Origin: an uncultured Rivularia sp.
GTDB taxonomy: Bacteria; Cyanobacteriota; Cyanobacteriia; Cyanobacteriales; Nostocaceae
Length of the DNA stretch: 64,000 bases
NCBI GenBank assembly: GCA_963665115.1
Contig: OY762007.1
Coordinates: 4,160,001 to 4,224,000 of the forward strand
Direction: 5' to 3'
The notes beneath the pieces are model-generated. The model did no database searches, was not told where the DNA came from, and worked only from the letters and a program-made list of their open reading frames with translations. This document shows positions 3,293 to 59,347 of the stretch, piece by piece. The position numbers and the translations under genes were made by a program. Numbering within the stretch: position 1 is the first letter of the stretch; each line of letters starts with the position of its first letter.

Positions 3293-3525
3293 ATGTCACC
3301 CGTAGATAAGAAGAACACCGTCGAAGAAAGAAAGCAGCTAGTTAACGAAGTTTTAGACGCTTATCCTGAGAAAGCTAAAAAAAGACGTGCTAAGCACCTC
3401 AACGTCCACGAAGAAGGTAAGAGTGATTGTGGCGTAAAGTCTAATGTCAAGTCTCTTCCTGGTGTAATGACCGCTCGTGGTTGTGCATATGCAGGTTCCA
3501 AGGGTGTGGTTTGGGGTCCGATTAA
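3293..3525 (+). CDS. nifD: NifD fragment 1 (codons 1-78)
   Basis: MSPVDKK...[19 protein letters not shown], then diverges at repeat CGATTAA. Confidence 0.95.
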
Positions 3526-5213
3526 AAATATGTTTTATCTTTAAAATAAAATACCCTAAACTGTTTGTAGAGAACAATTTTAAGCAAATTAAATGTTCTT
3601 TACAAGCAGTTATTTTTTAGGGCATATTTAGGATGAAAAAGGTGCATCAAGAAGATTTAGATGATTTATTTGAATATTTTGAAGTTCCGGCAAGCACCGA
3701 TGGAAGCTACATGGGTACACAAGCTCAGGTGAAAGCAACGCAAGAATATATGGATAAAATAATTGAGGAGAAGCTTACAAATATAAATGCAAGACTCAAG
3801 GCGAGTCAAAGCAAGGTAAGTATTAAAAAAGTTGGAAACACTCTACAGTTAAGAGCTACTCTTCCGTTAAAACCTGGCGATACTAATAAATCGGGGAGAA
3901 CTAGAAAGCAATACTTTATCTCTTTAAGTATTCCAGCGAATTTGAACGGATTAAAAACAGCTGAAGAAGAAGCTAATGAATTAGGCACGCTGATTGCAAG
4001 AAAATGCTTTGAATGGAATGACAAATATCTAGGTATAAATACAAATAAACAGGAGTATAAAACTTTTAAGCAAGTATTAGAAACTTTAGAAAATGAATAT
4101 TTTAGTACTAGAAAAAGAACTATTAAGAGCGAGCATAGTTTTTGGCATTTGTATAAACGATATAAACAATATTTTGAATCAAATTTACCAGTTACCAGTG
4201 AAAATATCATTACAATTATTAGAAATATTGGTTCCCCGACATCTCGCGACCAAGCAATCAGAGTCGCTAGGGTATTTTCTCAAATTCATCAAATAGAAGT
4301 CAATTTCAAAAATTTAAAATTGCCTGTAGTCCCTAATGATAGGTATATACCTTCAGATATTGAAATTACAGAAGCTTTTGGAAAATATAAGGTAAAAGGC
4401 AATAATACAAAAGTAAGGAAAGACTATCGAAACTCTTGGAAGCTACACAGGTTAGTATTTGGACTAATTGCTACCTATGGTTTAAGACCGCGTGAGGTAT
4501 TTAATCAACCCGATTTAGAATGGTTTTTAAGTGATGAAAATACCGATTGTACTTGGAAAGTTCATAAGTCAAATAAGACAGGTTACAGAGAAGTTTTGCC
4601 TTTTATACCAGAATGGGTAGAATTATTTGAATTAAAAAATCCAGAGGCTATTTATTTATTGAATCAAAAAATAGAACAGATAACAAGCTTTCATGAATTA
4701 TCACACTTAGTTCAAACTAATGCTCGATGGTTTAGACGCATTCTAGATCTACCGTTTGAACCTTACGATTTAAGGCACGCTTGTGCGATTAGAGCGCATA
4801 TTCAAGGTTTACCAATCAAAGCATCAGCAGATAATTTGGGGCATTCTGTAGAAATGCATACTAAAGTCTATCAGCGTTGGTTCTCTTTAGAAAATCGCAA
4901 GAAAGTTATGAAATCTGCAATCAACAAAAAATCAGATGAACAGTTAGAAGCTGAAAATATCAGGTTAATGGCAGAAAATCAACAACTGAAATACCAATTG
5001 GATAAATTACGGCAAATTTCATCAAATATTCGCTAAAAGTTCTTCAATTAGGGTAGATTTAGGATTCATCAAACCCAAGCATAATTAGCAATTTGATTTA
5101 CTGTTTTAATTTTTAGGGAGCTTGTTTAGGGTAAATTCAGGTTACTCGACTGCGGAGGTTTGCGAAACTACTGTTATATAGATTTTTCAGCAGTCGAAGA
5201 ATATCACGATTAA
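3519..5213. mobile_element. nifD excision element 1 (1,688 bp; direct repeat CGATTAA at 3519-3525 and 5207-5213)
   Basis: Excision restores GGT CCG ATT AAG GAC ATG = GPIKDM in frame; recombinase is the only gene inside. Confidence 0.92.
3633..5036 (+). CDS. XisA/XisC-like tyrosine recombinase of nifD element 1
   Basis: YGLRPRE, YDLRHACAIR, LGHSVEMHTKVYQRWF motifs. Confidence 0.93.
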   Translation: MKKVHQEDLDDLFEYFEVPASTDGSYMGTQAQVKATQEYMDKIIEEKLTNINARLKASQSKVSIKKVGNTLQLRATLPLKPGDTNKSGRTRKQYFISLSIPANLNGLKTAEEEANELGTLIARKCFEWNDKYLGINTNKQEYKTFKQVLETLENEYFSTRKRTIKSEHSFWHLYKRYKQYFESNLPVTSENIITIIRNIGSPTSRDQAIRVARVFSQIHQIEVNFKNLKLPVVPNDRYIPSDIEITEAFGKYKVKGNNTKVRKDYRNSWKLHRLVFGLIATYGLRPREVFNQPDLEWFLSDENTDCTWKVHKSNKTGYREVLPFIPEWVELFELKNPEAIYLLNQKIEQITSFHELSHLVQTNARWFRRILDLPFEPYDLRHACAIRAHIQGLPIKASADNLGHSVEMHTKVYQRWFSLENRKKVMKSAINKKSDEQLEAENIRLMAENQQLKYQLDKLRQISSNIR

Positions 5214-23246: not shown

Positions 23247-25337
23247 ATGAAAGACCTCACTCGTTATCGAAATATCGGCATCTTCGCTCACGTTGATGCA
23301 GGAAAAACAACCACAACTGAAAGAATTCTCAAGCTTACTGGTAAGATCCACAAAATCGGTGAGGTTCATGAAGGTGCGGCGACAACGGACTTTATGGATC
23401 AGGAGCAGGAGCGCGGTATTACGATTCAATCCGCTGCTACAAGCTGCTTCTGGAACGAACATCAATTGAATATCATCGATACCCCTGGGCACGTTGATTT
23501 CACGATTGAGGTATATCGTTCTCTCAAGGTTCTGGACGGCGGAATCGGCGTATTTTGTGGCTCTGGTGGTGTGGAACCCCAGTCGGAAACCAACTGGCGC
23601 TATGCTAACGACTCGGAAGTTGCGCGTGTTATTTACGTTAACAAGCTCGACCGCATAGGAGCAGATTACTACCGCGTTATCAAACAGGTGGAAGATGTGC
23701 TTGCTGCTAAGCCGTTGGTTATGGTACTACCTATCGGTACCGAAAGTGAATTTTCTGGCGTTGTTGACTTGCTGACTCGTAAAGCATGGGTGTGGGATGA
23801 TTCCGGCGACCCTATGAACTACGAGATTAAGGAAGTTCCGGAAAACATGAAGGATGATGTCGAAACTTGGCGCGAAAAGCTAGTTGAAATCGCTGTGGAA
23901 CAAGACGATGCGTTGATGGAAAAATACCTTGAAGGTGAAGAGGTATCCGTAGATGAGTTGAAGCGCTGTATCCGCAAGGGCACCATTGACTTAGCATTCT
24001 TCCCTACTTACTGTGGTTCTTCCTTTAAAAACAAGGGCGTACAATTAGTACTCAATGCAGTTGTTGACTATTTGCCTAACCCCAAAGAAGTCAAGCCTCA
24101 GCCCGAAGTTGACCTTGAAGGTAACGAAACTGGCGAATTTGCCGAAGTTGACTCAGAAGCACCATTGCGGGCGCTAGCATTCAAAATCATGGACGATCGC
24201 TTCGGTGCTTTGACCTTTACTCGCATATATTCAGGTACCCTTTCAAAAGGTGATACCATCCTCAATACCTATACTGGTAAAACCGAGCGTGTCAGTCGTC
24301 TTGTAGAAATGCACGCCGATTCTCGCGAAGAAATCGATACAGCCCAAGCTGGAGATATTGTCGCGATTGTGGGTATGAAGAACGTCCAAACCGGACATAC
24401 CTTGTGCGACCCCAAGGACCCCGCAACCCTAGAACCAATGGTGTTTCCAGACCCCGTAATCTCTATTGCGATAGCACCTGCGAAGAAAGGAAGCTCCGAG
24501 AAACTCGGTATGGCTTTGAGCAAGATGGTTCAAGAAGATCCTTCCTTCCAGGTTGAAACCGACAAAGACAGCGGTGAAATGATTATCAAAGGGATGGGAG
24601 AACTGCACCTGGATATTAAAGTTGATATCCTCAAGCGGACTCACGGCGTTGAAGTGGAAGTTGGTAAGCCCCAAGTAGCATACCGCGAATCTATTACTAA
24701 GCGCATCGAAGACACCTACATCCATAAAAAGCAATCCGGTGGTTCCGGTCAATTCGGTAAGATTGAATATATTATCGAACCTGGCGAACCCGGTACTGGC
24801 TTCGAGTTCCAGTCCAAAGTAACTGGTGGTAACGTACCCAGAGAATTTTGGCCCGCAGTTCAAAAGGGTTTTGAAAGCAGTATTGACAAAGGTGTTTTAG
24901 CTGGATTCCCCTTGGTAGACGTGAAAATTACCTTAACTGACGGTGCTTATCACCCAGTTGACTCCAGCGCGATCGCGTTTGAGATTGCAGCGAAATCCGG
25001 TTATCGTCAAACTTTACCAAAAGCCGGTCCTCAGTTGCTTGAGCCAGTTATGAACGTAGACGTATTTACACCTGACGACCACGTTGGTGATGTAATTGGC
25101 GACTTAAACCGTCGTCGTGGCATGATTAAATCCCAAGATCCAGGTGCTACAGGGGTTCGCATCAAGTCAGAAGTTCCTCTAAGCGAAATGTTTGGTTACA
25201 TCGGCGATTTACGTACCATGACTTCCGGTCGCGGTCAGTTCTCAATGGAATTTGACCACTACGCACCATGTCCTAGAAATGTCGCTGATGAAGTTATTAA
25301 GGAAGTGAAAGAACGCGATGCTGCTGCTAAGAAGTAA
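23247..25337 (+). CDS. fusA: Elongation factor G paralog (stand-alone, outside the str operon)
   Basis: [41 protein letters not shown]; 696 aa. Confidence 0.95.
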
Positions 25338-36341: not shown

Positions 36342-36452
36342 GGATTAAAGAAATAGGACGGGGGAACATCCCCCTATTTCTTATCTCCCAATCAAACCAC
36401 TAACTTTTATTTATAAACGACGATTATACTCGTCAAACTTGGAGAACACATA

Positions 36453-36724
36453 ATGCCACAGAATCCAGATAAAATTCAAGATCACGTAGAGCTATTTCAC
36501 CAGCCTGAATACCAAGAGCTTTTCGAGGGCAAGAAGAAGTTTGAAGGTGGACACGACCCCCGAAGAAGTTAAGAAAATTGCAGAATGGACTAAATCTTGG
36601 GAATATCGCGAAAAGAACTTCAGCCGTGAAGCTTTGACCGTAAACCCTGCTAAAGCTTGTCAGCCTTTAGGAGCAATCTATGCTGCTGCTGGCTTTGAAG
36701 GTACATTACCTTTCGTCCAAGGCA
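36453..36724 (+). CDS. nifK: NifK fragment 1 (+1 frameshift in C5 run 36557-36561)
   Basis: MPQNPDKIQDHVELFHQPEY...NPAKACQPLGA...GFEGTLPFVQG. Confidence 0.93.
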
Positions 36725-38561
36725 ATAAATTTCTAATCTTGAAACACTTATAATCAGAAAAGTTTCAATCTTTTCAAGATAGCAGTTGCTTTAATCTTGC
36801 TTCTTAACTAACTATTCTTTTAATCCAAAAATCGATAAAAGTACTAATTGTAATATATAAATCAAGCTTTATTAAGTTGCTTATAATTTGCTTAATTAAA
36901 ATTGTAAATATTACAAACAAACATAATCTTTATCATGTTCGTTGAGAACAACTATGGATGTATATATAAATATTGAAGCTAAATTTAGGCTAATAATAAA
37001 AAAACAGGTCGAATAACCTGTTAATAACTACAAATATTACGCTTAGGTTAATTCATCTGTATAGTTAAACGTAATTTAGTTAATTCCAATTCTAATTCCA
37101 GGTTTCTTTTACGTAAAGCTGCTATTTCATCTTTCAATTTATCAATCCGATCAATTTCTTCAAAGGTTTGATTAAATGCTGTACGTCTATTTTCTAAGCT
37201 AAACCATCGCTGATAAGTCTTAGTATGCTCTTCCACTGTATGACCTAAATTATCAGCAGCAGCTTTAATCGGGACTCCTTGTAATTGTGCCCTAATAGCG
37301 CAAGCATGGCGTAAATCGTAAGGTACAAAGGGTATTTTTGTTGATGAGAAATATTTAGATATAACGCTAACTTTATCAGTGAGTTGTCTCTCCGAATTCC
37401 AAATAGAAAATGATTTTAATGCATCTATACCTTCAAAATCATTTTTTAAATTTAAAAGTTGAATCCACTCGGGTACGAAAGGAAAAACTTCTCTGTATCC
37501 AGTTTTATTTGATTCATGTACTTTAAAAGTATTGTAATTATTCTCGGATGACATTAACCAGTTTAAATCTGGATGATTAATTATTTCTCTAGGGCGTAAA
37601 CCGTAAATAGCTAATAGTTTATAGATAAACTTCATAGCTCTGTTTTTAGGAATAGTCTTACTACCATATCTAGATATTGTTTTTATTCTTTCATCAAACA
37701 ATGAGATTGATTTAGCTATCAGACTGTCGCTAGGTATATCTCTGTGTTTTGGCTTTTGCTTTAATTTTAAATTATTAAAACTAGCTTCAATTTGTAATTC
37801 CTGGCAAATATAATCAACAGCCCTAATTGTTTTATTCCGGGTATATGGTTCTTGTATAGATAATATTCTTTGCTTTAAAGTATCAGCGTTTATCATTTCA
37901 TCACCCATCAAAGCTTTATGAAATGAGTATCTTAAACTATGGAAAGTATGTTCGCTTTTTAAAGTTTTCTTTCTCTTGCTAAAGTATCTATCTTCTAATT
38001 GATTGTAAAATTCGTCATAAGTAATATTTTTATTTTTTAAAGCTTGTTGCCCTAAATATTTATCAGTCCACTGAAAAATGTGACGAGCGATTAACTTACC
38101 TAACTCACAAGCTTCTTCTTCAGCCGTCTTTAGCCCGTCAAAACTAGCTGGTATCCCCAGACTTATTTTATATTGCTTCTTGTCTTTAGCTTGCTTGTGA
38201 GTATCACCAGGTTTGAGTGGAAGTGTGGCGAGTAATTGTATTGCTCCTCCTGTAGCAGTCAAAGTAACCTTACACTTGCTAGCTTTTAGTCTTTGATTAA
38301 CTTCGATCAATTCCTCTTCAAATTTCATATCAAAATGTTTTTTTGTCATGTCTGAGATATTCTTCATACCTCTATAGGTTCCATCAGAAGTGCTAGGAAC
38401 TTCAAAGTCGCTAAAAACCTTGTCCTGTATGTCTTTCATAAATTTGCTTAAATATTGCTTAAAAATTGGAATGTTCTACTTGAACTAACATTATTTGAAA
38501 TAAGTTTATAGCAAACATTATAGACTTTTTAATGCTTTAAACAAACCATAGTTCCAAGGCA
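36716..38561. mobile_element. nifK excision element 1 (1,837 bp; direct repeat TCCAAGGCA at 36716-36724 and 38553-38561)
   Basis: Excision restores PFVQGSQGC. Confidence 0.93.
37048..38439 (-). CDS. XisA-like tyrosine recombinase of nifK element 1
   Basis: YGLRPRE, YDLRHACAIR, LGHTVEEHTKTYQRWF. Confidence 0.93.
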   Translation of the reverse strand: MKDIQDKVFSDFEVPSTSDGTYRGMKNISDMTKKHFDMKFEEELIEVNQRLKASKCKVTLTATGGAIQLLATLPLKPGDTHKQAKDKKQYKISLGIPASFDGLKTAEEEACELGKLIARHIFQWTDKYLGQQALKNKNITYDEFYNQLEDRYFSKRKKTLKSEHTFHSLRYSFHKALMGDEMINADTLKQRILSIQEPYTRNKTIRAVDYICQELQIEASFNNLKLKQKPKHRDIPSDSLIAKSISLFDERIKTISRYGSKTIPKNRAMKFIYKLLAIYGLRPREIINHPDLNWLMSSENNYNTFKVHESNKTGYREVFPFVPEWIQLLNLKNDFEGIDALKSFSIWNSERQLTDKVSVISKYFSSTKIPFVPYDLRHACAIRAQLQGVPIKAAADNLGHTVEEHTKTYQRWFSLENRRTAFNQTFEEIDRIDKLKDEIAALRKRNLELELELTKLRLTIQMN

Positions 38562-38586
38562 GTCAAGGTTGTGTGGCTTACTTCCG
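38553..38586 (+). CDS. nifK: NifK fragment 2 (34-bp micro-fragment, QGSQGCVAYFR)
   Basis: tc CAA GGC AGT CAA GGT TGT GTG GCT TAC TTC CG supplies exactly the residues missing between fragments 1 and 3. Confidence 0.93.
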
Positions 38587-40436
38587 ATTCAATTTAATAA
38601 TCTTTGAAATATTTAAAAATAAAACGTTGAGAAATCATATTTTGTTTCTCACTACTATTTCACTATAATTACTAGCTAGATAGACCTAATCTTCAATAGA
38701 AACAACAAACTTACTTGCAATTATTACACTATTTTTCACCTAACTATTAAATTTAACAAAATCATTGAAAATAGGAAGTATAATTAAAATTGTCTTTAAG
38801 TGAATTCAAAGAATAAATTAGTAGATTATAAATTATAGCAAGCAGTTTTTATGACCATCGAAAAAACAAAAAGTAGGCATTCTCAGCCTACTTTAAAAAA
38901 GGGTGTTAAGTTTGATAGCAAATAATCACATCATCTGAGAAAATTTAAATCTAGCTAATTCAGTTTCTAATTCAGCTATACGCTTTTTAAGACCTGTATT
39001 TTCCACTTCAAGTTCATTAAGTCTAGACATCTGATTAAAAGTTTGATTAAAAGCTTTTCTTCTATTCTCCAAACCGAACCATCTTTGATAAACTTTAGTA
39101 TGCATCTCTACAGAATGACCTAAGTTATCGGCTGCGGCTTTAATAGGTACTCCTTGCAGGTGTGCCCGAATAGCACAAGCGTGACGTAAATCATATGGAG
39201 AAAAAGAGATTCCGCAACTTTTAAAGCTACCTGCTATCTTATTTACTTTGCTAGATAATTCAATTGCAGTTCCCTTGCTAAAAGAATACTCTTTTAACAT
39301 ATGTAATCCTTTTTGATTTTTTACATCAAAAAGTTCAATCCATTCAGGTACAAACGGAAAAACTTCCCTGTATCCAGTTTTATTTGATTCATGTACTTTA
39401 AAAGTATTGTGTTCGTTTTCGGGAGATACAAGCCAATCCAGATCGGGATTATTCATCACTTCTCTAGGACGTAAACCATAAACAGCTAACAATGCATAAA
39501 CTGTTTTATACTTCAACCAATTATTTTCATATTTTTTTTGACCTTTGACTTTTTCATTAAAATGTTTTTCAAAAAAAAGTATTCCTGTTTCAATCTCTTT
39601 ATCGGTAGGTATCAATCTTTGTTGAGGTTTTGTTTTAGGTATCAAGTCTGATAAATTAGCTTTAATCCCTAATGAGTTAAGAATTATCTTACCCATAGTA
39701 ACCATTGTCCTTTTGGATGCATCATATGGTACTTTCTTAATTTTATCCCTAACTGAAAACTCTGTAATTACTTCACTCCCAGAAAAAACTGCTCTGTATC
39801 TTCTTTTGTAGCTAAGTAAAGTTCCTTCACTTTTGATAGTTCTTTTTCTCTCCGAAAAATATCTTTCCTCAAACTGTTCGTAAAACTCATCAAATGTTAT
39901 GGTCTTTTTCTTCTTCGCTTGAACTCCTAAATATTTATCATTCCAAATAAAAGTTTTACGAGCGATTAACTTTCCTAATTCCTGTGCTTCTTCTTCAGCA
40001 GTTTTTAAGCCATCGAAATTAGCTGGAATACCTAACGATATAGTGTACTGCTTTTTATCTTGACCTTTTGAATCAGTGTCACCGAGTTTCAATGGGAGAG
40101 TAGCCCGTAACTGAATAGTTCCACTCCTAGATTCTATGCTTACTTTTGTTTTACCAGCTTTCAATCGTTTATTAATTTCTGTTATTTCTTGCCCGAACTT
40201 GGCTTGTACGTGTTTACGAGTTTCACTCACGTGTCTTTTGAGTCCTAAATAACTACCGTCGGTAGTTGCTGGAGGTTCAAAGTCTTCAAAAACCTTTCCC
40301 TGTATATCTGCCATGTTTACACTAGATGTACACTAAAATATTTTCAGTTCGCTACAAACAAGTAAACAAACTTTCATTTGATCTCTGTAAACATTTTAGG
40401 TTTAATTAGACTTCTTACTCAAGTGGAATACTTCCG
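38579..40436. mobile_element. nifK excision element 2 (1,850 bp; direct repeat TACTTCCG at 38579-38586 and 40429-40436)
   Basis: Excision restores CVAYFRSHLTRHFKEP. Confidence 0.93.
38926..40314 (-). CDS. XisA-like tyrosine recombinase of nifK element 2
   Basis: YGLRPRE, YDLRHACAIR, LGHSVEMHTKVYQRWF. Confidence 0.93.
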   Translation of the reverse strand: MADIQGKVFEDFEPPATTDGSYLGLKRHVSETRKHVQAKFGQEITEINKRLKAGKTKVSIESRSGTIQLRATLPLKLGDTDSKGQDKKQYTISLGIPANFDGLKTAEEEAQELGKLIARKTFIWNDKYLGVQAKKKKTITFDEFYEQFEERYFSERKRTIKSEGTLLSYKRRYRAVFSGSEVITEFSVRDKIKKVPYDASKRTMVTMGKIILNSLGIKANLSDLIPKTKPQQRLIPTDKEIETGILFFEKHFNEKVKGQKKYENNWLKYKTVYALLAVYGLRPREVMNNPDLDWLVSPENEHNTFKVHESNKTGYREVFPFVPEWIELFDVKNQKGLHMLKEYSFSKGTAIELSSKVNKIAGSFKSCGISFSPYDLRHACAIRAHLQGVPIKAAADNLGHSVEMHTKVYQRWFGLENRRKAFNQTFNQMSRLNELEVENTGLKKRIAELETELARFKFSQMM

Positions 40437-41676
40437 TTCCCACTTAACCCGTCACTTCAAAGAGCCTTTCTCTGCTGTTTCTTCTTCAATGACTGAAGAT
40501 GCTGCGGTATTCGGTGGTTTGAAGAATATGATTGATGGTTTGACTAATGCTTACGAGCTTTACAAGCCTAAAATGATTGCCGTTTCCACTACCTGTATGG
40601 CTGAGGTAATTGGAGATGACTTGGGTTCATTTATCGGTAATACTAAAAATGAAGGTGGTATTCCTGAAGATTTACCCGTACCTTTCGCTCACACTCCTAG
40701 CTTCGTAGGTTCTCATATTACCGGCTACGATAATATGATGAAGGGTATTCTTCAAAACCTGACTCAAGGTAAGAAGAAAGATAAAACCAATGGCAAAATC
40801 AATATCATTCCTGGTTTTGATACCTACGTTGGCAACTTGCGCGAAGTTAAGCGTATTGCTAAGTTAATGGATATTGACTACACCTTGTTGGCTGACAACT
40901 CCGATTACGTTGATGCACCCAACGATGGTAAGTTCAATATGTACCCCAAAGGTACAAAATTGGAAGATGCTGCTGATTCTTGCAATGCTGAAGCTACACT
41001 TTGCTTGCAAGCACATTCTACTCCTAAGACTCGCGAGTTAATAGAGAAAGAGTGGAAGCAACCCACTTCAGTTATTCGCCCTTGGGGTATTCGCGGAACT
41101 GATGAGTTCTTAATGAAACTCAGCGAATTGACTGGTAAGCCCATTCCTCAAGAGTTAGAAGAAGAGCGCGGCCGTGCAGTTGACGCTATGACTGACTCTC
41201 ACGCTTGGTTACACGGAAAGAAATTTGCTATCTTCGGCGACCCCGATTTAGTATATGGTATGACCAGCTTCTTAATGGAATTAGGTGCAGAACCCGTTCA
41301 CGTTTTGGTTCACAACTCCAACGAGAAGTTCAAAACCGAAATCGAAGAGTTATGCTCTAGCAACGAATACGGTAAAGGTGCAACCTTCTGGCCTGGTAAA
41401 GACTTGTGGCATATGCGTTCTTTACTATTCACCGAGCCTGTAGACTTCATGATCGGTAACTCCTACGGTAAGTACTTGGAGCGCGATACCAAGACTCCTT
41501 TAATCAGAGTTGGTTATCCTATCATGGATCGTCACAATCTACACCGTTACTCTACCATTGGTTATGAAGGTACAATCAACCTAATTACCTGGGTTGTAAA
41601 CGCTATCTTTGAAGAAATCGATCGTAGCACCAACATTCCTTCTAAGACAGATATTTCCTTCGACTTAATTCGTTAG
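40429..41676 (+). CDS. nifK: NifK fragment 3
   Basis: YFRSHLTRHFKEP...TTCMAEVIGDD...TDISFDLIR. Confidence 0.96.
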   Translation, partial: YFRSHLTRHFKEPFSAVSSSMTEDAAVFGGLKNMIDGLTNAYELYKPKMIAVSTTCMAEVIGDDLGSFIGNTKNEGGIPEDLPVPFAHTPSFVGSHITGYDNMMKGILQNLTQGKKKDKTNGKINIIPGFDTYVGNLREVKRIAKLMDIDYTLLADNSDYVDAPNDGKFNMYPKGTKLEDAADSCNAEATLCLQAHSTPKTRELIEKEWKQPTSVIRPWGIRGTDEFLMKLSELTGKPIPQELEEERGRAVDAMTDSHAWLHGKKFAIFGDPDLVYGMTSFLMELGAEPVHVLVHNSNEKFKTEIEELCSSNEYGKGATFWPGKDLWHMRSLLFTEPVDFMIGNSYGKYLERDTKTPLIRVGYPIMDRHNLHRYSTIGYEGTINLITWVVNAIFEEIDRSTNIPSKTDISFDLIR

Positions 41677-41832: not shown

Positions 41833-41877
41833 GGCATTGGGCATTGGGCATTGGGCATTGGGAATTGGGCATTGGGA
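41833..41877 (+). repeat. STRR heptamer array (GGGCATT)n
   Basis: Seen directly. Confidence 0.85.
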
Positions 41878-43728: not shown

Positions 43729-43848
43729 ATGGCTATTGTCGCAACTCAAAATAAACCAGTTATAGTCAATCCTCTCAAGCAAAGCCAAACCTTGGGTGCA
43801 ACTTTAGCCTTTCTAGGATTGAAAGGTATGATACCACTCGTCCACGGT
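43729..43848 (+). CDS. nifN: NifN fragment 1 (40 codons)
   Basis: MAIVATQNKPVIVNPLKQSQTLGATLAFLGLKGMIPLVHG; absent from ORF track. Confidence 0.93.
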
Positions 43849-43962
43849 ATTCGAGGTTGACTTAAAACCCTAATATCTCGTAAACTGTTTGCCTCTAACT
43901 ATTTAGTTTAACTAATAGTTTAAGCTGAACATTTACAAGATTAGTCAATATTTAGTCAACAG

Positions 43963-45351
43963 ATGGATGATATACAGGGTAAAGTTTTTAACGATTTTGA
44001 ACCTACTTCTTATACAGACGGTAGCTACTTGGGGATGGTAAAACATAGCAAGGAATCTAAAAAACATTATGAAATGAAGTTTAAAGAAGAGTTAGTCAAA
44101 GTTAATCAGCGACTACGTTCTAGCAAAACTAAGGTAAGCATAGAATCGACTAAAGGGGCATTACAGCTTAGAGCTACATTGCCACTCAAGCCAGATGATA
44201 CTCATCCTCAAGGCAAATTGACTAAGCAATATAAAATAAGCTTGGGAATCCCCGCTAACTTTGAAGGCTTGAAAACTGCCGAGGAGGAAGCTTATGAATT
44301 AGGTAGATTGATTGCTCGTAAAATGTTTGTTTGGAATGACAAGTATTTAGGTACAAAAGCTGTTCAAAAAAACAATATTACTTTTGATAAATTTTGCGAA
44401 CAGTTAGAAGAAAGATTCTTTGAGAAAAGAAAACGTACTCTTAAAAGTGAAAATACATTTGATGGCTTCAAGTACCCTTTTAAAAAATATTTTTCTGGTA
44501 GTGAAATTATCACTATAGATGCAATAAAGAAAAGAGTACTTACCACGACACAGCCATATGTAAGGAAAAGGGCCATAGTTGCTGCTTGTTTTATATGCAA
44601 GCAATTAGACATCGAACATTCATTCAATGATCTAAAGTTGCCGCTCATTCCATCAAAAAGGAATATTCCTAGTGATGAGGAAATAAAGATATCTTTCAAA
44701 CTTTTTGATGAATACTTTACGGCATTACCTCTAAAAAGAGAACAAAGTGTTCAGAAAAATAAATTGCATAAAATAATTTATATATTAATGAGTGCATATG
44801 GATTAAGACCTAGAGAAATTTTAAATCAACCCGATATTGATTGGTTTGTATCAAAAAATAATGCTCAAAAAACTTTTAAAGTTCATGAGTCGAACAAAAC
44901 TGGCTATAGAGAGGTATTCCCTTTTATGCCTGAGTTATTGGATCTGGTTGATGTTAATTCTGACAGTGATTTGATTAATAGTTTAAGGAATGCTATTAAA
45001 TGGCAAGATATAAAGCTTTTAACCGCCAGAGTTACTGAAATAAGTAAATATTTTTCAAAAGTTGGGATACCATTTAAGCCTTACGATTTACGTCACGCTT
45101 GCGCTATTCGCGCACACCTGCAAGGAGTTCCGATTAAAGCCGCTGCTGACAATCTAGGACATTCGGTTGAAATGCACACAAAAGTTTATCAGCGGTGGTT
45201 TGGACTTGAAAACAGAAGAAAAGCTTTTGAACAAACGTTTGAAGACATAAACGAGATAGATAGATTGAGAGACGAACTAACGCGAGCTAAGCAAGAAATA
45301 GCCGATTTAAAGTTAAAATTAGCTAGGACTAAGTTAGAAAAGATGGTGTAA
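43963..45351 (+). CDS. XisA-like tyrosine recombinase of the nifN element
   Basis: YGLRPRE, YDLRHACAIR, LGHSVEMHTKVYQRWF. Confidence 0.93.
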   Translation: MDDIQGKVFNDFEPTSYTDGSYLGMVKHSKESKKHYEMKFKEELVKVNQRLRSSKTKVSIESTKGALQLRATLPLKPDDTHPQGKLTKQYKISLGIPANFEGLKTAEEEAYELGRLIARKMFVWNDKYLGTKAVQKNNITFDKFCEQLEERFFEKRKRTLKSENTFDGFKYPFKKYFSGSEIITIDAIKKRVLTTTQPYVRKRAIVAACFICKQLDIEHSFNDLKLPLIPSKRNIPSDEEIKISFKLFDEYFTALPLKREQSVQKNKLHKIIYILMSAYGLRPREILNQPDIDWFVSKNNAQKTFKVHESNKTGYREVFPFMPELLDLVDVNSDSDLINSLRNAIKWQDIKLLTARVTEISKYFSKVGIPFKPYDLRHACAIRAHLQGVPIKAAADNLGHSVEMHTKVYQRWFGLENRRKAFEQTFEDINEIDRLRDELTRAKQEIADLKLKLARTKLEKMV

Positions 45352-45381
45352 CTGCAACTCTAATCGCTATATAGCTATTTC

Positions 45382-45410
45382 AAAAGTAGGTGAAAAACAC
45401 CTATTTTTTT
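45382..45410 (+). terminator. Terminator-like hairpin after the nifN-element recombinase
   Basis: TAGGTG-aaaaa-CACCTA plus T-run; similar hairpins follow the nifK recombinases (37002-37022, 38869-38894). Confidence 0.6.
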
Positions 45411-45727
45411 GTGCTTACAACGATTTTAATAGCTAAAACTGTATTTATTATAAGTAGTAAAAATAATAAGCACGTGGATATGTATCTATTATAAAAACTG
45501 CTCAGAATGAACTATTTTGATTGTTTTTATTTTCTAAAAAATAATTAATATAATATCTATTGTCAAATTAGTAAATAATCAGTAAACAAGTAATTAAATT
45601 AATTTACTGTTTTAACTGACGTTTATCTTTTTCAGGTGATGAAAATTAGTCAATTCTTAGTCAACAGTTAATAGCTGTATGCCAGAATGCTTGAAGCAGT
45701 AATATTTTAGCTATCCTTAGTTTCGCA

Positions 45728-46925
45728 CCACGGTTCACAAGGATGTACGGCTTTCGCTAAAGTTGTATTAGTACGCCATTTTCGAGAGGCGATTCCTCTT
45801 TCTACTACGGCAATGACGGAAGTATCTACTATTTTGGGTGGAGAGGATAATGTCGAGCAAGCAATTCTAACTTTGGTGGAAAAGGTAAATCCTGAAATTA
45901 TTGGTCTTTGTACTACGGGGCTGACGGAAACTAGGGGGGATGATATGGAACAAATCCTCAGAGATTTTCGTAAAAGTCATCCTCATTTGAACGAGTTACC
46001 GATTTTGTTAGTCTCTTCACCAGATTTTAAAGGAGCCTTGCAAGACGGATATGCTGCTGCTGTAGAAAGCATGGTTCGCGAACTTCCTCAAAAAGGTGAA
46101 ATTAAAGGTTCACAAGTTAATATCTTGATAAGTTCCGCTTTTACCCCAGGGGATTTACAGGAAGTCAAAGAAATTGTTAGTGCTTTTGGATTGACTCCTA
46201 TTCTTATACCCGATCTTTCCGCCTCATTAGATGGTCATCTAGACGATTCTTGGAGTCCGATAACGGGCGGTGGTACGACTTTGAAGCAACTGCGTGAAAT
46301 GGGCAGTTCGGCTTTTACTATTGCGATCGGCGAGAGTATGCGGGGTGCAGCGGAAATTTTAGATAAACGCTTTGCAATTCCTTACGAATTATTTACAGAG
46401 CTAACTGGATTAGATGCTGTAGATAACTTTTTACAAGCGCTATCAGATCTTAGTGGTGTTAGCGTTCCAGAAAAATATCGTCGGCAACGCCGTCAATTAC
46501 AAGACGCGATGCTCGATACTCACTTTTTCTTTGGTCGCAAGCGGGTATCCTTAGCTTTAGAACCCGATCAGCTTTACACAACGGCTAATTTTATGCAATC
46601 AATGGGAGCAGAAATTCAAGCCGCAGTCACCACTACACGTTCTCCTTTACTGGAAAAACTTCCTCTCGAAAAAGTTATCATTGGTGACTTAGAAGATTTT
46701 GAGCAAGTTGCCACGGGTTCTGACTTATTAATTGGTAACTCTAACGTTAAAACAGTTGCTCGCAAGTTAAATATTCCTCTTTATCGCCAAGGTATCCCCA
46801 TTTTTGACCGTTTAGGTATAGGTCAATTTAATAAAGTTGGCTATCGAGGAACTATGCAAATTTTGTTTGACATTGGCAACGTGTTTTTAGAGCAAGAGGA
46901 AATGAGTGTTAAACACGCTCATTAA
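45728..46925 (+). CDS. nifN: NifN fragment 2
   Basis: HGSQGCTAFAKVVLVRHFREAIPLSTTAMTE...DAMLDTHF...GDLED. Confidence 0.95.
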
Positions 46926-55989: not shown

Positions 55990-56418
55990 TTATACCGACA
56001 ATTTAACGTTATGTTCTTGAGCAATTTGAGAAAGCTTTTCAAACTGCTGCTCGGAAGCCTTAGCGATCAACTCTTCCGCTTGTGTTTCGTCGGTTCCTTC
56101 AGAAGGAAACAAATGCTTTACGTAAAGCGAAACAAAATCAACCATTGCTGGTAGATCGGGTAAAGAATGGTTATCAGCTTGCTTTCCAGCAAATGTCGCT
56201 ACCAATCCAGTTCTGATATCCTTTCTTGTCGTATCCATAAATTGACCAACAAGTTCCGGAATATAGTCTGCTGTTGGTAATTCTCCTAACTTTGTTTCAT
56301 TAGGAGTAAATTCGTATCCTGCTTCCCTAGCTTGTTGAGTAACGCACCACTGAGTAAACTCTTGGAGTGCTTCTTCAGGAAGATTGGCCAGATGTTCGTG
56401 TAATGCTTTGTTCGACAT
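55990..56418 (-). CDS. Hypothetical protein downstream of hupL
   Basis: 142-aa ORF with clean start, co-oriented with hupL. Confidence 0.7.
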   Translation of the reverse strand: MSNKALHEHLANLPEEALQEFTQWCVTQQAREAGYEFTPNETKLGELPTADYIPELVGQFMDTTRKDIRTGLVATFAGKQADNHSLPDLPAMVDFVSLYVKHLFPSEGTDETQAEELIAKASEQQFEKLSQIAQEHNVKLSV

Positions 56419-56439
56419 AGTTAGTTTTTGTATGAATTG

Positions 56440-56612
56440 AATTTGGGGATTGGGGATTGGGGATTGGGGATTGGGGATTGGGGATTGGGAATTTGGGGAT
56501 TGGGGATTGGGGATTGAAGATTGGGGATTGGGGATTGGGAATTGGGGATTGGTAATCGGGGATTGGGGATTGGGGATTGGTAATTGAAGATTAAGGATTG
56601 AGAATTAAGGAT
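56440..56612 (+). repeat. Long STRR1-type heptamer array (GGGGATT)n
   Basis: More than 20 units between hupL and the next gene. Confidence 0.92.
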
Positions 56613-56674
56613 AGGGAGCAAGATGCTCCCACTACTCTCTATATCTCCCATGCCCAATGCCCTATGCCCAATCT

Positions 56675-57775
<1,101 letters not shown>

Positions 57776-58030
57776 GGAACGGGCGATTTGCTCAGAATGT
57801 TCGTAAATAACTTATTGATAAGGCTTTGATGATATTCGCTAACAGTTTTTTTCGAGCGTTTGAGCTTATAAATAAGGGAATATTTAGGGAAAAACATTAT
57901 GCCCTTCCGCCAGGAGAGGAGTGCCCGAAGGCGGGGTGAGGTTTCTATTTCATCTACCTATACAAAGAATCGTTTACCAATACATTTGCGAATTTGTACC
58001 ACTAAACACCACAGACGGTAGCTATAGGGA

Positions 58031-59347
58031 ATGGCGAAAACCAAAGCGACGGAATTAGATTATCAAGAAATTTTTAAGCAAAAGTTAGCTGAAGCAAATT
58101 CTAATTTAAAAAGAGATAGAGTTAGAGTTACCATCAAACAAACGGGGAATTCTCTACAGTTACGGGCAACACTACCGTTGAAAGAAGGCGATCGCCAATC
58201 TACTAAAAGTAAAAAGCAGTACGATTTATCTTTGGGTATTCCAGCAAATTTAGAAGGATTAAAAACCGCCATTGAAGAAAGTTACGAGTTGGGTAAATTA
58301 ATCGCTCGTCATACTTTTGTATGGAATGAAAAGTATTTAGGAATCAAGTTTAGAGAAAAGAATCAAGAGAAGCAGAAGATAAAAACTATTGGAGAATTAT
58401 TAGATAAATTCGAGGATAATTATTATAAAAATCGTGAAAAGACTATAACTAGTCAAAATACCTTTGCTAATTATGTATCGGTGATTAAAAGGAATTTTTC
58501 ATTAACAACTTTAGCAACAAAGAATAATTTTGAATCGGTAATTAATCAAACAAAAGGAAATAAGAAAAACGAACTGATTGCGGTATCTTCCGTTTTTCTC
58601 AAAACATTTAAGCTGGAATTCACCCTCGATGTCAAGCGCGATCGCGTTACTCCTAAATTTCGAGAAATTCCCGAAGACGAGAAAATCATTCATTCTTATA
58701 AACTATTTGAGAAATTTGCCCTTAATCGTAAAAATACCAATATCTGCGATGTAACCGAAACCTGGGAAATGTGGCGCTGGGTATATGGAATGCTAGCAAC
58801 CTTTGGATTACGCCCCAGAGAGTTATTTGTAAAACCAGATATTAACTGGTGGATATCCGAGCAAAATACAGATAATACCTGGAAAGTTGATAAAAATACC
58901 AAAACCGGATACCGCGAAGTTATCCCTTTCGTTCCCGAATGGATAGAATTATTCGATTTAAAAAATCTCCAAGCTTTAAAAATATTAGACAAGAAAGTTG
59001 CAAAAATAGCATCTGTGCAAAATATTAATTGGATGCGGAGAGATATATCGAGATGGTTTAGAAAAATAGGAATTGAATTTCAACCCTACGACTTACGTCA
59101 TGCTTGCGCGATTCGTTCTCATTTACAGGGAATACCCATCAAAGCCGCAGCAGATAACTTAGGTCATACAGTTGACGAACATACGAAAACTTATCAGCGC
59201 TGGTTCGGGATGGAGAATCGTAAAAAAGCTTTTGGTGAAGTAGTTAGTCAGAAGTCGCTGATTGAATTGCAGAAAAATGAAATATTGGCGTTGCGGATGG
59301 AGAATGAAAAGTTGAGGTTGGAGGTTGAGAGGTTGAGGTTTGGATGA
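58031..59347 (+). CDS. xisC: hupL element recombinase XisC
   Basis: FGLRPRE, YDLRHACAIR, LGHTVDEHTKTYQRWF; adjacent to the hupL break. Confidence 0.92.
   Translation: MAKTKATELDYQEIFKQKLAEANSNLKRDRVRVTIKQTGNSLQLRATLPLKEGDRQSTKSKKQYDLSLGIPANLEGLKTAIEESYELGKLIARHTFVWNEKYLGIKFREKNQEKQKIKTIGELLDKFEDNYYKNREKTITSQNTFANYVSVIKRNFSLTTLATKNNFESVINQTKGNKKNELIAVSSVFLKTFKLEFTLDVKRDRVTPKFREIPEDEKIIHSYKLFEKFALNRKNTNICDVTETWEMWRWVYGMLATFGLRPRELFVKPDINWWISEQNTDNTWKVDKNTKTGYREVIPFVPEWIELFDLKNLQALKILDKKVAKIASVQNINWMRRDISRWFRKIGIEFQPYDLRHACAIRSHLQGIPIKAAADNLGHTVDEHTKTYQRWFGMENRKKAFGEVVSQKSLIELQKNEILALRMENEKLRLEVERLRFG

Follow-up and report, generated by a model that had tools for sequence, protein, structure and literature searches.

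How can a nitrogenase gene be made whole when two DNA elements lie back to back inside it and leave only 34 bp of the gene between them? The question was raised by nifK in the window, the 64-kb stretch of cyanobacterial DNA analysed here, in which nifD, nifK, nifE and nifN are all present. On the + strand, nifK occupies 36453-36724, 38553-38586 and 40429-41676, as follows.

36453..36724, + strand: nifK piece 1, residues 1-90; its 3′ end is core A
36557, + strand: additional C within a run of Cs, probably an assembly error, that throws the assembled piece 1 out of frame
38553..38586, + strand: nifK piece 2, 34 bp, consisting of core A (38553-38561), 17 unique bp (38562-38578) and core B (38579-38586)
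38570..38572, + strand: TGT codon of Cys94, the predicted equivalent of the bridging P-cluster ligand β-Cys95
40429..41676, + strand: nifK piece 3, residue 97 to the stop (PF00148, E 3e-120)

The two insertion sites are at positions 263 and 289 of nifK, back to back and 26 bases apart, and both fall within its conserved P-cluster motif. The middle piece reads TCCAAGGCA, 17 bp and TACTTCCG, and its translation is QGSQGCVAYFR. The original prediction had located this peptide at 38553-38586 and described it as missing between the large nifK pieces. Its location and translation were reproduced, but the QG codons also end piece 1 and the YFR codons also open piece 3, and just the 17 unique bases (the end of Ser, then QGCVA) are absent from the large pieces. 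That only 38562-38578 is unique and the rest belongs to the core repeats, as had been claimed, was borne out by the cores at 36716-36724 and 40429-40436. When the six frames of the 8.69-Mb genome were searched, the peptide was matched at 10/11 residues at 38553-38586 and at no more than 6/11 elsewhere. The genome has one nifK, which ruled out a second copy as the source of the Cys, and the middle piece holds the sole genome copy of the β-Cys95-equivalent codon. In an alignment to a solved 523-residue β-chain, position 95 was matched by Cys94 of the intact NifK of a sister genome, and in the available text of PMC10745740 β-Cys95 forms the bridge between two P-cluster irons. The alignment supports the earlier proposal that this Cys would be the β-Cys95 equivalent. 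With the extra C discounted, double excision was predicted to give a gene of 1,536 bp that encodes 511 aa without an internal stop, and this predicted NifK was identical to that of the intact sister G001 at 505/511 residues.

Piece 1 as assembled meets a stop after 39 residues, owing to the extra C at 36557, which is absent from the original prediction. Among the runs of the organism, this base was retained in the contigs of X1 and missing from those of X2, X3 and X4. Genus assemblies were also compared, and the extra C was absent in 20/23 and present in 3/23. The extra C is likely an assembly error, not a proven one.

Two elements and their recombinases

The boundaries of the two elements and their genes were assigned as listed.

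36716..36724, + strand: core A, left copy (TCCAAGGCA), repeated at 38553-38561
37048..38439, − strand: recombinase A, XisA/XisC-type tyrosine recombinase of 463 aa (PF00589, E 1.5e-6, above the cut-off)
38926..40314, − strand: recombinase B, XisA/XisC-type tyrosine recombinase of 462 aa (PF00589, E 1.5e-4, below the cut-off)
40429..40436, + strand: core B, right copy (TACTTCCG), repeated at 38579-38586

Element A is 1,837 bp and element B 1,850 bp, each with a recombinase as its sole gene and with an element GC of 0.31-0.32. The core is a 9-bp direct repeat in A and an 8-bp direct repeat in B. An 8-bp word, TCCAAGGC, flanked the A elements on both sides in 8/8 cases, and TACTTCCG flanked the B elements on both sides in 7/7. 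Both recombinase ORFs are full length and start about 114 bp from their respective right cores. R282, K306, R377, H400 and Y409, which we take to be the catalytic R-K-R-H-Y of tyrosine recombinases, were intact in both proteins; R282, R377, H400 and Y409 were invariant across 40 aligned relatives. The recombinase profile matched archaeal XerA (4a8e, E 1e-4). For residues 40-135 of recombinase B, the nearest clusters were PF27551 XisAC_N with scores of 0.95, 0.94 and 0.93, a lead that carries no E-value, and the next nearest were Arm-DNA-binding clusters of weak likeness (0.91-0.92).

The two recombinases were 54% identical to each other. Their identity to the recombinase of the nifD element in the window was 40% for A and 43% for B, and the window carries the classic nifD element core GGATTACTCCG. 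In the recombinase tree, sequences grouped by target site and not by genome (site 1, 13 rows, 100/99; site 2, 7 rows, 100/100). This grouping and the 54% identity indicate that A and B are independent elements, and the identity and the separate clades ruled out tandem duplication of one element.

Tandem hexamers separated by 5 bp were found inside both elements.

36786..36802, + strand: TTGCTT-N5-TTGCTT, putative arm-like repeat 62 bp inside element A
36877..36893, + strand: TTGCTT-N5-TTGCTT, second such repeat of element A, putative in function
38444..38460, + strand: TTGCTT-N5-TTGCTT of element A, 92 bp from its right core, putative in function
38649..38665, + strand: TCACTA-N5-TCACTA, putative arm-like repeat 63 bp inside element B
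40318..40334, + strand: TACACT-N5-TACACT of element B, putative arm-like repeat at 94 bp from its right core

These hexamers were element-specific, TTGCTT in A and CACT-type in B; in each element, a repeat lay about 62 bp away from one core and another 90-94 bp away from the second core. The repeat at about 62 bp (61-63 bp) was exact in 7/8 A, 6/7 B and 5/5 A′ elements, A′ being a related element at site 1, like A, in the opposite orientation. The A′ repeat was mirrored, like the A′ recombinase gene. The 92-bp repeat was exact in 3/8 A and 6/7 B elements, and under a strict test, an identical hexamer at both ends without mismatch, just 2/20 elements qualified.

Phage lambda Int works with arm-type and core-type sites. 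The elements resemble that system in having internal tandem repeats whose distances to the core are fixed, a short gene-side site and a recombinase N-terminal domain with likeness to Arm-DNA-binding clusters, whereas they carry neither phage genes nor an excisionase gene. From their position and spacing, the repeats about 62 and 92 bp inside the elements may be lambda-like arm sites. Because all of the arm-like repeats are element-internal, only the core-side half-sites would have to come from the small piece. The empty site B is an imperfect inverted repeat with a dyad of 8/12, a value reached by 6 of 1,247 nifK positions; the dyad of the empty site A (6/12) was not unusual. The 12-bp core flanks of the two sites (38562-38573 versus 38567-38578) overlap by 7 bp within the spacer.

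Relatives and possible traces of excision

The genus survey covered 27 genomes, 24 of them with nifK mapped. Nine had no element, three had A only, five had A′ only, two had B only and five had both A and B with the 34-bp piece (G000, G003, G011, G014 and G015). In the other four A+B genomes, the piece differed by 1, 1, 2 and 4 bases, all of them synonymous. The 30 bases to the right of the piece differed in these genomes by 0, 13, 14 and 19, and those to the left by 0, 3, 4 and 4. The element-free genomes G007 and G016 carried the predicted junction at 99/100 bases. In the nifK tree, G007 was sister to the A+B genome G003 (100/98), and the states were scattered over the tree. The empty state of G007 fits precise loss of the elements and acquisition of an empty allele in their place alike, because it showed no informative nifK differences from G016 (105-470).

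Outside the genus, none of the 275 genomes in a family sample showed these nifK sites by best match, a scoring that would overlook a second, split copy in a genome with an intact nifK, with one genome (G140) undecided. Partial best matches over residues 41-200 were obtained in 11/275; ten were split at the known site near 156-160, and in the eleventh, G140, the nifK match starts at a contig end. Three genomes of the sample had no nifK match and two had no match at all. A metagenome scan returned three loci, namely a repeat of the G014 locus, a B-only locus like that of G006 and a nifB element, and the three matches of a plasmid search were all distant. Within the genus, a nifD pair with 4 bp between the cores was present in 3/21 pattern-matching genomes (G031, G033 and G037), and these pairs retain only 12-15 bp of rejoined context. 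The 34-bp nifK piece is not the extreme within the genus.

Excision was sought in sequencing runs. Neither joined nifK nor a circle was seen in the contigs of the four runs of the organism, and such contigs drop rare variants. On the other hand, a mat DNA contig (X13; 2,403 bp, depth 16.8) covered 36448-36717 with 33 differences and then 38886-40512, and its gap was 332 letters versus the 331 expected for a B-only strain. A mat RNA contig (X22; depth 29.5) had the same start, the same 33 differences and the same gap; it continued through 18 motif letters directly to 40429, joined across B. The joined form had a depth of 0 in the mat DNA run. This pair of contigs, from one sample, fits precise excision of B in a B-only relative, and an element-free twin strain could also be the source of the joined RNA. 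In X9, X13, X21 and X22, joined forms carrying a His codon came from other organisms and were left out of the count, as were those joined RNA contigs of X21 and X22 that had the greatest depth, for which no element-bearing DNA contig matched. No RNA contig matched the A-bearing strain of the mat DNA run, and the RNA and DNA data examined gave no excision signal for element A and none for the double state.

Mechanism and alternatives

What the data establish is how the locus is built, that both recombinase frames are intact, that all four states occur in nature, and that element-free sisters carry the exact rejoined sequence. We consider it likely that A and B are two independent elements, each excised as a circle by its own enzyme, probably one after the other and in either order, with the 511-residue NifK restored. 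During heterocyst development, each element would be cut out by its own XisA/XisC-type recombinase. Pairing by each enzyme would be confined to the two cores of its own element, since cores must match for strand exchange and the arm-like repeats presumably act in an element-specific way. The gene side would give only short half-sites for core binding. Within the 17-bp spacer these would adjoin or share as many as 7 bp, and the two reactions are thus probably not simultaneous. The excisions would follow each other in free order and yield the rejoined 511-residue NifK. The small piece appears to be a by-product of two elements targeting one slowly changing motif and not a designed switch. Recombination that skips the piece by joining the outer sites is unlikely from the sequences involved. 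The best word shared there, CTTTCGT/CTTCCGT, matches at 6/7 and is shifted by 6 bp relative to core A; unlike cores and unlike arm-like repeats disfavour such an event, and its product would lose 34 bp, shifting the frame.

That the arrangement is a misassembly, or the peptide a chance match, has almost no probability left. A short piece between two similar recombinase genes is a setting that invites such an error, and the four runs come from one study that may include the source sample. However, a single 1,892-bp contig covers 37506-39397 in 4/4 runs, the arrangement recurs in four other genomes with diverged sequence, and the best peptide match elsewhere in the genome is 6/11. The spanning contigs, the other genomes and the genome-wide peptide search refuted this reading, and the misassembly against which the original prediction had guarded was not seen in any of the runs. 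That the locus is dead, with elements no longer excised and nifK a pseudogene, we regard as very unlikely. Such decay would agree with the absence of a joint in the four runs and with frameshifts as assembled in nifK piece 1, the nifD-element recombinase, nifS and a nifH-element recombinase. However, the breaks in nifK, the nifD-element recombinase and nifS are all located in homopolymer stretches of C or G, and 3/4 sequencing runs lacked the two for which a check was possible. Moreover, the rejoined protein without the extra C is nearly identical to the intact sister NifK (505/511), the recombinase frames are full length, nifK is single, and the changes in the piece are synonymous.

The remaining alternative concerns the order of the two excisions. 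According to the original prediction, two different recombinases would act on sites 17 bp apart, and this might force an order. The two recombinases were upheld by their 54% identity and their separate site-specific clades; the forced order was not. An obligatory order would mean a two-step relay, in which one recombinase is blocked until the neighbouring element has gone, and we judge it improbable. The 7 bp shared by the 12-bp core flanks in the spacer speak for it, as do the arm-like repeats of A and B within about 130 bp of the piece, where the complexes could clash. A clash, however, would bar simultaneous action and not either order. Both intermediates exist as whole-genome states (A only in 3 and B only in 2 of 24). 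The rejoined context retained with the neighbour present is 25 bp for A and 26 bp for B, and the nifD pairs of G031, G033 and G037 persist with 12-15 bp. With this context retained, and with each intermediate found in nature as a genome state, the sequence implies no order. Furthermore, both core pairs are complete and already in direct orientation, unlike in an ordered cascade, where one event has to generate or invert the substrate for the following one. It is similarly doubtful that dense packing (17 bp here, 4 bp in nifD) makes the recombinases compete for bases and so sets up an ordered DNA-splicing relay in nitrogenase assembly. Sequential excision in either order remains the preferred reading.

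Relation to known systems

In common with the heterocyst interruption elements in nifD and hupL of Anabaena PCC 7120, as described in the available parts of Hilton et al. 2016 (PMC4874684), A and B are inserted in a nif gene and have short direct repeats and a low GC. As in the elements of that survey, the recombinase lies near one end and is reversed when at the far end. Its available tables place recombinase-only elements of 1.7-1.9 kb at nifD 227, nifD 896, nifB 170 and hupS 610, list up to four elements per gene, and include, for Rivularia and Calothrix, sites that elements of the window also occupy. In nifK they give elements only at 469 and ~1277, whereas the adjoining pair described here is at 263 and 289. 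Of the marks of interruption elements, short direct repeats and a recombinase near one end were found here, and in-frame rejoining is predicted once the extra C is discounted.

The closest precedent is nifD-III of Calothrix sp. NIES-4101, for which the available text of Uesaka et al. 2024 (PMC11249958) reports a 46-bp piece and recovery of the full nifD by sequencing and PCR. In both cases a tiny stretch of the gene is flanked by two elements that carry separate recombinases. They differ in gene (nifD; here nifK), in length (46 bp; here 34 bp) and in enzymes (serine plus tyrosine recombinase; here two tyrosine recombinases), and only the piece described here carries a metal-cluster ligand. The same source has a 45-bp nifD piece in another strain; the ordered recombination cascade at nifH/nifB of NIES-4101 served as a comparison. 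For two strains, the accessible part of its Table S4 gives a nifK split at 91/92 (residues), which is the first insertion site found here with only one element near the motif; this part of the table contains neither a 34-bp piece nor a split at 97/98. In the portion of PMC8461463 that was available, nifK is unmentioned. A 2026 preprint (10.64898/2026.01.15.699626) describes, in its available text, a search for nif fragments of <20 residues, and its supplements may list the present case. The literature searched, mostly outside subscription journals, contained no report of the 289 site, the A+B pair or arm-type sites of XisA. The first nifK site and the rejoined 46-bp nifD piece are already published, and the second site (289) and the A+B pair were not found in print as far as searched.

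This nifK is probably a tightly packed variant of known heterocyst gene rejoining, and it leaves unchanged the known rule that heterocysts rejoin nif genes split more than once. It adds the nifK insertion site 289, which is absent from the available parts of the Hilton 2016 and Uesaka 2024 surveys. Genes of this kind receive pseudogene calls unless pieces of 20-35 bp are sought. The four states in sister genomes (none, A, B and A+B) form a natural test set for the DNA requirement of XisA-type enzymes, and the tighter nifD pairs limit the gene-side site to about 12 bp.

Variation of the nifK elements among related genomes

In the window, nifK is split by two recombinase-only elements, A (1,837 bp, site 263) and B (1,850 bp, site 289), leaving a 34-bp piece between them. 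The site of A was occupied in five same-genus genomes by a relative, A', in reverse orientation (loci L024, L034, L039, L040 and L042, from G012, G008, G033, G034 and G037, respectively). The recombinases of A' and A shared 67-69% identity, and the arm-like repeats (element-internal tandem hexamers) of A' were mirrored compared with those of A. In G015 (locus L035), three elements were located within the first 470 bases of nifK, at sites 263, 289 and 463.

The nifK of G007 (L021) was almost identical to that of G003 (L036), yet both A and B were absent in G007. Its nifN was also intact at the site interrupted in the window, and the nifD element was retained. The state of G007 could reflect either clean element loss in a vegetative line or substitution of an empty allele.

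A smaller piece of nifD in sister genomes

A nifD piece below the 34 bp of nifK was found, consisting of a TACTCCG core (the short direct repeat bounding an element), 4 bp (GTCC) and a TTATCACG core. On one side of it lies the classic nifD element; the element on the other side is 1.75-2.0 kb long and encodes a recombinase of its own. Among the 21 genus genomes that matched the pattern, three carried this piece, with the upstream nifD end checked in G031 only:

L037:9627-9648 (G031); on the reverse strand, L039 (G033) and L042 (G037): smaller nifD piece

Other interrupted nif genes at the source locus

Two elements interrupt nifD in the window, and a 1,886-bp element with core CCACGGT interrupts nifN.

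Elements in nifD and nifN (window coordinates)
3519-5213: nifD element 1, 1.7 kb, near position 227
6333-36195: nifD element 2, 29.9 kb, at GGATTACTCCG
43842-45734: nifN element, recombinase 43963-45351, arm-like TAGTCA repeats

Judged by their translations, the cargo genes of the 29.9-kb element include a paralogue of EF-G (23247-25337) as well as genes that are NRPS-like and acyl-CoA ligase-like. The nifH gene of the source genome (G000), which lies upstream of the window, is in at least four pieces (G000:C1:4136813-4141148). One of these, about 77 bp long, has an Xis-type element on one side and, on the other, a 1.7-kb element whose 497-aa ORF is a different one. For nifN, Uesaka 2024 (PMC11249958) gives insertions in 0 of 29 strains, and a 2026 preprint (10.64898/2026.01.15.699626) gives one in 163.

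Assembly frameshifts and remaining window features

Single-base frameshifts
Window 34865: nifD-element recombinase, C or G tract
Window 36557: nifK, C or G tract
G000:C1:~4134745: nifS, C or G tract
G000:C1:~4138018: nifH-element recombinase

Because the frameshifts in the nifD-element recombinase and nifK were missing from three of four runs, homopolymer errors are likely in this assembly.

Pieces resembling hupL (window 55990-59347) adjoin another Xis-type recombinase (58031-59347), and the element beside them is likely a hupL element. Heptamer tandem repeats are frequent among heterocyst formers, and one, (GGGCATT)n, was observed in the nifK-nifE gap (window 41834-41876).
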